From a virus: a stretch of 10,026 nt of DNA. Below are positions 5,394 to 5,452 of the stretch, in pieces. The DNA lies in the UHGV virus genome UHGV-2165603; one strand, 5' to 3'. Numbering within the stretch: the stretch's first letter is position 1; each line of letters opens with the position of its first letter. Under the pieces are notes generated by a model, which was not told the DNA's origin, searched no databases, and worked only from the letters and a program-made list of their open reading frames with translations. The position numbers and the translations under genes are program-made.

Positions 5394-5452
5394 AAATAGA
5401 AATAGAAATAGAAATAGAAATAGAAATAGAAATAGAAATAGAAATAGAAATA
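5394..5452. repeat. Hexanucleotide tandem repeat (AAATAG) x9 plus a partial unit
   Basis: Nine perfect contiguous AAATAG units at 5394-5447 followed by AAATA. Lies about 320 bp upstream of the 590-aa ORF start. Confidence 0.95.

Follow-up and report, generated by a model that had tools for sequence, protein, structure and literature searches.

The hypervariable O157 typing marker VNTR-9 lies within the relic of an IS911-like element in a lambdoid prophage

The perfect AAATAG repeat tract in the virus sequence analysed here (UHGV virus genome UHGV-2165603; the window is the whole stretch of 10,026 nt, one strand) is the established and already known MLVA marker VNTR-9, alias O157-9, TR1 or Vhec4, belonging to the set of eight MLVA loci that PulseNet uses for E. 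coli O157:H7, and its instability is known from experimental measurement. Around it is a decayed IS911-like element of the IS3 family with internal deletions, and at a probability of roughly 85% we take the tract to be a neutral microsatellite that arose in the decaying orfA of that element and changes length by slippage during replication. No positive support was found for regulatory, architectural, coding or RNA-level readings of the tract, which, taken jointly, are unlikely. The origin of the tract in an IS3-family orfA relic may be new, as may the dependence of the standard assay on a secondary IS30 insertion; a limited literature search found no earlier description of this tract as originating in an IS relic.

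The repeat is real and far beyond chance. Tandem Repeats Finder reported at 5394-5452 (a feature without strand) an array of period 6 with 9.8 copies, 100% matches, 0 indels, a score of 118 and the consensus AAATAG, the sole strong tandem array in the 10-kb window; the sequence itself reads as nine full AAATAG units at 5394-5447 and then AAATA, which agrees with the nine perfect copies described by the sequence-only reading. Given the base composition of the AT-rich region, 53 positions of period-6 identity would be expected by chance about 4e-26 times per 10 kb. The geometry described there also held: 317 nt lie between the end of the tract and the TTG start of a 590-aa ORF on the plus strand, and on the opposite side, facing the HNH endonuclease gene and ninG, 195 nt lie between the start of the tract and the HNH ATG (5199-5197, minus strand). 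The tract falls between annotated genes, and its 6-nt unit preserves every reading frame, again as that reading had it; two minus-strand ORFs cross the tract (5259-5510 and 5350-5520), both of them unsupported, and they are taken up below.

Several names have been given to this marker, with VNTR-9 (PulseNet), O157-9 (Keys 2005), TR1 (Noller 2003) and Vhec4 (Lindstedt 2003) denoting one locus, as equated in print for Vhec4, TR1 and O157-9 (PMC3768571) and for VNTR-9, Vhec4 and TR1 (PMC3321953). For TR1 in O157 MLVA the published repeat is AAATAG and the forward primer ACTGCATGATAAGCCTCAGG (PMC2246123, table 2); the forward primer sequence for VNTR-9 is given in PMC3321953 (table A1) and PMC8461963. 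Both forward primers found sites on the plus strand of the window with 0 mismatches, the Noller TR1 primer at 5302..5321 and the PulseNet VNTR-9 primer at 5184..5210, overlapping the HNH start codon. The reverse primers of TR1 and VNTR-9, which at this locus would be expected to yield a product of about 474-614 bp, had no site in the window with up to three mismatches allowed. In O157:H7 86-24, which has the common left flank and the tract, both reverse primers find sites further on, so that in-silico PCR yields 538 and 312 bp; these sites lie inside a truncated IS30 whose terminus begins 19 nt after the tract and which replaces the right flank. More broadly, in-silico PCR gave products from IS30-type loci only (520-538 bp for VNTR-9, 294-312 bp for TR1), and the standard primer pairs gave none from the window or from 29 other uninterrupted loci. 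Since both reverse primers lie in an IS30 that is absent here, the window allele would type as null, although its tract is orthologous. The window locus thus shares with the classical O157:H7 VNTR-9 locus the AAATAG unit, an identical left flank, an equal position relative to HNH and ninG, and hypervariability, but differs in that the classical locus carries IS30 19 nt after the tract and lacks the remainder of the relic as well as the 590-aa gene. The uninterrupted configuration seen in the window also occurs in Stx1 phages and in O103/O111/O145 prophages.

Copy number varied at every scale on which we compared it. Among 34 homologous loci (the window, annotated records, 26 IMG/VR contigs and two E. 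albertii prophages) we counted 13 alleles of 4-17 units, with no odd/even preference (20 odd, 14 even), and internal variant units (AAACAG, AAATGG three times, AAGTAG) of which some had been duplicated in turn. Six aligned loci had tracts of 7-17 units, while their roughly 440 nt of flank differed by no more than a few substitutions. A 601-nt query spanning the tract matched 524 of the 5,426 complete E. coli genomes, in each case on the chromosome, and the spans of the matches stepped by 6, implying 5 to about 23 units; closely related O111:H8 isolates gave spans of 600, 630, 636, 642, 648 and 684 for the one 601-nt query, and seven sampled O157:H7 loci implied 9-16 units. Tract length was sampled at about 100 loci, against 524 carrier genomes. 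These ranges accord with published typing, in which 202 German O157 isolates had 6-23 repeats in 15 alleles, with a diversity index of 0.90 and 31.7% null alleles (PMC3321953), and serial-passage experiments gave a combined mutation rate of 1.3e-4 per generation (PMC3777172). The suspicion that the tract is prone to slipped-strand mispairing is therefore upheld, by the 13 alleles in 34 loci and by the published serial-passage mutation (PMC3777172), and had long been known; the copy-number comparison across related prophages that had been proposed finds 4-17 units, so that an identical number everywhere can be dismissed. This hypervariability is why the tract has been a standard MLVA marker since 2003. 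In fifteen complete genomes there were two tract-bearing loci, one truncated by IS30 and the other in a Stx1-type prophage (e.g., O157:H7 F6321 and strain 150), and in silico the standard VNTR-9 primers could amplify only the IS30-truncated one.

The context of the tract came from a sensitive search of phage records, in which the tract region unexpectedly matched IS911 and other IS3-family elements at 66-75% identity. Blastn against the IS911 of phage Sf6 aligned three parts of the window in order: 5225-5248 with IS911 nt 10-33 (23 of 24 identical), 5244-5592 with nt 146-457 (66% identity, E 3e-40) and 5581-5630 with nt 1199-1249. Together with tblastn, an NCBIfam match and a multiple alignment of the relic with IS911, an ISEc52-like element and a Klebsiella IS3-like element, these place a plus-strand relic at about 5213..5630. 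Its left inverted-repeat remnant (5213..5248, plus strand) spans alignment columns 1-23 and 141-153 and includes the 23/24 match to IS911 nt 10-33, by which this end can be recognised; degeneration has affected the outermost bases and the right end, whose remnant (IRR; 5581..5630, plus strand) is the third blastn match. Between the two ends lies an orfA pseudogene remnant (5243..5515, plus strand, frame of 5201), in which residues 24-98 of IS911 OrfA aligned at 48% identity (tblastn, E 2e-21) across in-frame stops; its start is missing, there is an in-frame stop at 5300-5302, and it ends at the stop at 5513-5515. The first 35 or so codons of orfB follow (5498..5593, plus strand), with residues 16-47 of IS911 OrfB aligned at 56% identity (tblastn, E 1e-8). 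The conceptual orfA translation matched the NCBIfam IS3 transposase NF033516 (E 5e-6); it matched nothing in Pfam, probably because of its low-complexity (IE)n.

What is missing from the relic is IS nt 24-140 and 458-1198, the latter about 740 nt of orfB, and with it the transposase. In IS911 the 12-nt direct repeat ATACTGGAAAAA occurs at nt 446 and again at nt 1199, bounding the missing orfB body, which suggests deletion between direct repeats. The 418-nt segment is collinear with IS911 and the IS3 family through the left inverted repeat, the C-terminal three quarters of orfA, the start of orfB and the right end, but it differs from the intact elements found in its roughly 66-74% identity to them, its deletions, its stops and its lack of a transposase: it is a fossil and not a mobile element. 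A functional IS3-family member has intact orfA, an orfB encoding a DDE transposase and a -1 frameshift site, and the relic has none of these in working form; the IS911 heptamer A-AAA-AAG, which we take to be the frameshift site of that element, has its counterpart shortly 3' of the tract, where the sequence reads AAAACAG. The closest intact IS that we found was only 72-74% identical to the relic, so the relic is old.

The alignment also places the tract within orfA. At the tract position IS911 reads ATT GAA ATG GAG AAT GAA ATA, encoding 'IEMENEI', part of the C-terminal leucine zipper of OrfA, and tblastn aligned the tract with the OrfA segment 'RIEMENEILKKA'; the ISEc52-like element reads ATT GAA ATA GAA AAT GAA ATA at the same position. 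The codons of these two elements indicate that the ancestral orfA was already imperfectly 6-nt periodic. In the orfA frame the tract itself reads (ATA GAA)n, that is (Ile-Glu)n, in a frame that is riddled with stops. The identity with VNTR-9, the polymorphism, the relic context and the lack of signals are direct results of the analysis; the order of events and the neutrality of the tract we infer, the neutrality from an absence of evidence for function. The IS911-like element would have been pseudogenised first, and slippage would then have expanded and homogenised its 6-nt-periodic orfA stretch (ATTGAA ATAGAA AATGAA ATA in the living relative) to (AAATAG)n. Units would since have been gained and lost by slipped-strand mispairing, yielding alleles of about 4-23 units among strains, and a hairpin intermediate would not be needed; predicted secondary structure for the tract was none on either strand (MFE 0 to -0.3 kcal/mol, z about 0). 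Such length changes would leave intact genes and recognisable signals unaltered. An E. albertii prophage with diverged flanks retains the relic with six pure units, a point against neutrality in that it fits retention as well as slippage-driven homogenisation.

The classical O157:H7 configuration is secondary to this. IS30 has removed the 590-aa gene from about 278 O157:H7 genomes, which still carry the tract. We considered whether the point at which O157:H7 homology stops marks the tract as a recombination breakpoint and rejected this, as homology runs 19 nt further, to the IS30 terminus. The junction itself is a separate observation: it reads ...ATATTAAAACAGACCAC and then TGTAGATTC in the O157 relic (86-24, 5176-5195), and ...ATATTAAAAAAGGCTAC and then TGTAGATTC in IS911A of K-12 MG1655 (1530-1545). 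The two IS30 insertions occupy the exactly orthologous nucleotide, 19 nt past the tract position, in IS3-family orfA sequences that are about 66% identical. The two junctions together point to a hot-spot for IS30 targeting shortly 3' of the IS911 frameshift heptamer.

The window is the nin region of a lambdoid prophage of the Stx-phage type, with its early genes on the minus strand. It has annotated counterparts in the Stx1 phages SH2026Stx1 and AU6Stx1, in E. coli O111:H- 11128, and in numerous further EHEC genomes. Two scans of species-representative genomes, one with the left flank and one with the tract plus right flank, returned zero matches, which confines the element to a subset of prophages (524 of 5,426 E. 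coli genomes) plus E. albertii. Between ninE and the HNH gene lies an AT-rich insert of 2.8 kb (29-38% GC vs. about 50% for the phage backbone), with the lowest GC of the window at 5401-5800 (29.5%); it carries the 590-aa ORF, in the opposite orientation to the early genes, and the tract sits within the 570-nt divergent intergenic space.

On the left of that space, the HNH endonuclease gene (4444..5199, minus strand; Pfam HNH_3, and annotated as such in homologous loci) starts 14 nt from the left end of the IS relic and precedes ninG, a Ser/Thr phosphatase gene and Q. Many P22-like and lambda-like phages have, at their ninF/ninG junction, a sequence 97.6% identical to its first 40 or so nt and ribosome-binding region (5171-5212). 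It therefore seems that insertion placed the HNH gene after the start of an original ninG, whose N-terminus (MAKPARRRC...) it uses, and a second ninG follows it. At 4755-4938 collinearity with O111:H- 11128 breaks, as an insert of 184 nt, with a target duplication of 5 bp, interrupts the HNH gene. This insert consists of both ends of an IS21-family (IS100kyp-like) element around a gap of 10 Ns (4828-4837), and looks like an IS collapsed in a scaffolded assembly.

On the right, the 590-aa ORF (5769..7541, plus strand; taken from the ORF list) is an AT-rich orphan, the gene of the AT-rich island, belonging to PHROG 9230 of unknown function, and its product had no match in Pfam, NCBIfam or PADLOC. 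Homologues were found only in E. coli, E. albertii, Salmonella enterica and Providencia alcalifaciens, all with type III secretion systems, and E. albertii has a 71%-identical copy of the gene in a chromosomal islet, beside the gene for the caspase-inhibitor effector NleF. A Ser/Thr-rich N-terminal part of 125 or so residues is predicted to be disordered, with the remainder all-helical; we consider the protein a candidate secreted effector. An AlphaFold2 model, built from a 17-sequence alignment, had a mean pLDDT of 38 and was unusable. In O111:H- 11128 (5542-7340) the gene is split into two CDS of 311 and 275 aa, and PHROGs holds the two halves as separate families, so the gene is decaying in some lineages.

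Two further sequence elements stand between the relic and this ORF. A block of TTGACG (5639), 17 nt and TAATAA, the only promoter-like one seen by eye, is shared without change between the E. coli window and the locus in E. albertii; it lies beyond the right end of the relic, about 190 nt 3' of the tract. A 15-nt inverted repeat (5674-5688 and 5710-5724, 93% complementary) follows it. The block and the inverted repeat could possibly be a promoter and operator of the island gene.

The position of a hypervariable tract in a divergent intergenic space raises the possibility of a tuning (contingency) element, in which 6-bp steps would shift the distance and helical phase between an upstream site and the promoter of the 590-aa gene, or of the divergent HNH-ninG-Q genes, and so change expression. 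Precedents exist in the TAAA tract upstream of nadA in Neisseria meningitidis, which tunes expression by repeat number, and in the TA tract between -35 and -10 of hifA/B in Haemophilus influenzae. The present tract resembles such loci in being an intergenic short repeat upstream of an acquired gene, with slippage at about 1e-4 per generation, and the TTGACG/TAATAA block, being identical in the two species, could be the promoter of the 590-aa gene about 190 nt downstream. It differs from them in lying outside any recognisable promoter or intact ORF, in having a unit that is a multiple of three, and in persisting when the gene is deleted. Phase-variable loci have a non-3n unit in an intact ORF, or lie in or beside a promoter; here the unit is 6 bp and the location a pseudogene. 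No sigma-70 consensus was found on either strand from 5100 to 5900, in a crude scan that non-canonical or activator-dependent promoters would escape, and the sole terminator-like site near the tract (5343-5327, minus strand) is weak, with a 5-bp stem. Since all of 5213-5630 is what remains of a dead IS, the sequence upstream of the tract would not be expected to hold a regulator site. Nor did the 34 loci show a preference for odd or even numbers or for any length, and there is no upstream repeat at the 71%-identical chromosomal copy in E. albertii or at the 48-50%-identical Salmonella homologues; moreover, the tract survives in the roughly 278 O157:H7 genomes without the downstream gene, and HNH-ninG-Q are in lambdoid phages normally read through from the phage early promoter. 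We know of no on/off or graded phenotype for the tract. We thus consider tuning very unlikely, and the earlier suggestion that copy number alters the spacing of upstream elements finds no support for a tract in a pseudogenised IS3-family orfA with no sigma-70 consensus from 5100 to 5900.

A second architectural proposal, that the tract is curved DNA or an H-NS nucleation site that silences the AT-rich island with a strength set by tract length, starts from the general binding of H-NS to AT-rich DNA and from the composition of the region, with its minimum of 29.5% GC at 5401-5800 and an island at 29-38% vs. about 50% for the backbone. The AT-richness, however, belongs to the whole 2.8-kb island rather than to the tract. 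The A3 tracts recur every 6 bp, a rotation of about 206 degrees per unit, and are out of helical phase, so that the summed bend vector stays at or below about 1 unit for 1-24 copies, vs. 9 for helically phased units. With bends cancelled by the 6-bp phasing, copy number alters length and helical phase and not curvature, and the altered local curvature that had been proposed is not borne out, the net bend being at most about 1 unit at any copy number. The 10-nt high-affinity H-NS motif TCGATAAATT was not enriched in the window (14 found vs. 15.8 expected) and had 0 occurrences in the tract, which leaves H-NS silencing at the tract itself unsupported. There is only a slim chance that the tract nucleates H-NS; binding to the whole AT-rich island, judged from its composition and not specific to the tract, is plausible.

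The two minus-strand ORFs raise a coding alternative, namely that the tract is the repetitive core of a small protein, (Leu-Phe)n in 5259-5510 or (Ile-Ser)n in 5350-5520, whose length would follow the copy number. Both ORFs were open in all 34 loci, and PGAP annotates a 'hypothetical protein' over long tracts, e.g., WP_001430471.1 (60 aa) in F6321 (5061-5243). CTATTT, however, contains no stop in any frame, so this openness is automatic, and the PGAP-annotated (Ile-Ser)n ORF is almost certainly a spurious one created by the repeat. Read from the sequence, neither ATG is preceded by a Shine-Dalgarno; neither ORF matched Pfam or PHROG; both run antisense to a transposase pseudogene; IS30 has displaced their N-terminal parts in loci of the O157:H7 class, about half of carriers, and in E. 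albertii they are shortened to 46 and 33 aa. A coding role is accordingly extremely unlikely.

We hold a role at the RNA level to be just as hard to credit, whether by Rho loading at (CUAUUU)n on the early minus-sense transcript or by Hfq binding at (AAUAGA)n on a plus-sense leader, each effect growing with copy number. In its favour, the minus-sense tract is unstructured, with 0% G and 15% C, and would be part of an untranslated antisense stretch of about 2.6 kb that separates ninE from HNH; rut sites are G-free and C-periodic, and the distal face of Hfq binds A-R-N triplets. The argument is one of pure motif resemblance, however, no plus-strand promoter is predicted upstream of the tract, and N-antiterminated early transcription in lambdoid phages is Rho-resistant. 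A search of Rfam over 4800-8200 at E<=1 returned two sub-threshold matches to plant and animal miRNAs only, which we attribute to chance, and no family. Length-dependent tuning of 590-aa gene transcription, or Rho loading that alters read-through into Q and hence the timing of late genes and Stx, would be the effects to look for under these alternatives, and we regard either as quite improbable. Were either true, the lengths scored in routine typing would at the same time indicate that outbreak strains differ in phenotype; the 590-aa gene, the target in the first of the two, is an orphan restricted to enterics bearing type III secretion.

For the tract as a feature, the identification of a probably neutral microsatellite in an IS relic changes little; two side results are of modest use. 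The tract is present in Stx1 phages and in the uninterrupted prophages of O103/O111/O145, from which the standard primers cannot amplify it, and some O157 genomes carry two tracts of which one is scored. IS30-free alleles may contribute to the high frequency of VNTR-9 nulls (31.7% in PMC3321953). The marker would also be a tidy bacterial case of the birth of a microsatellite from cryptically repetitive coding sequence, here the leucine-zipper codons of a dead orfA.
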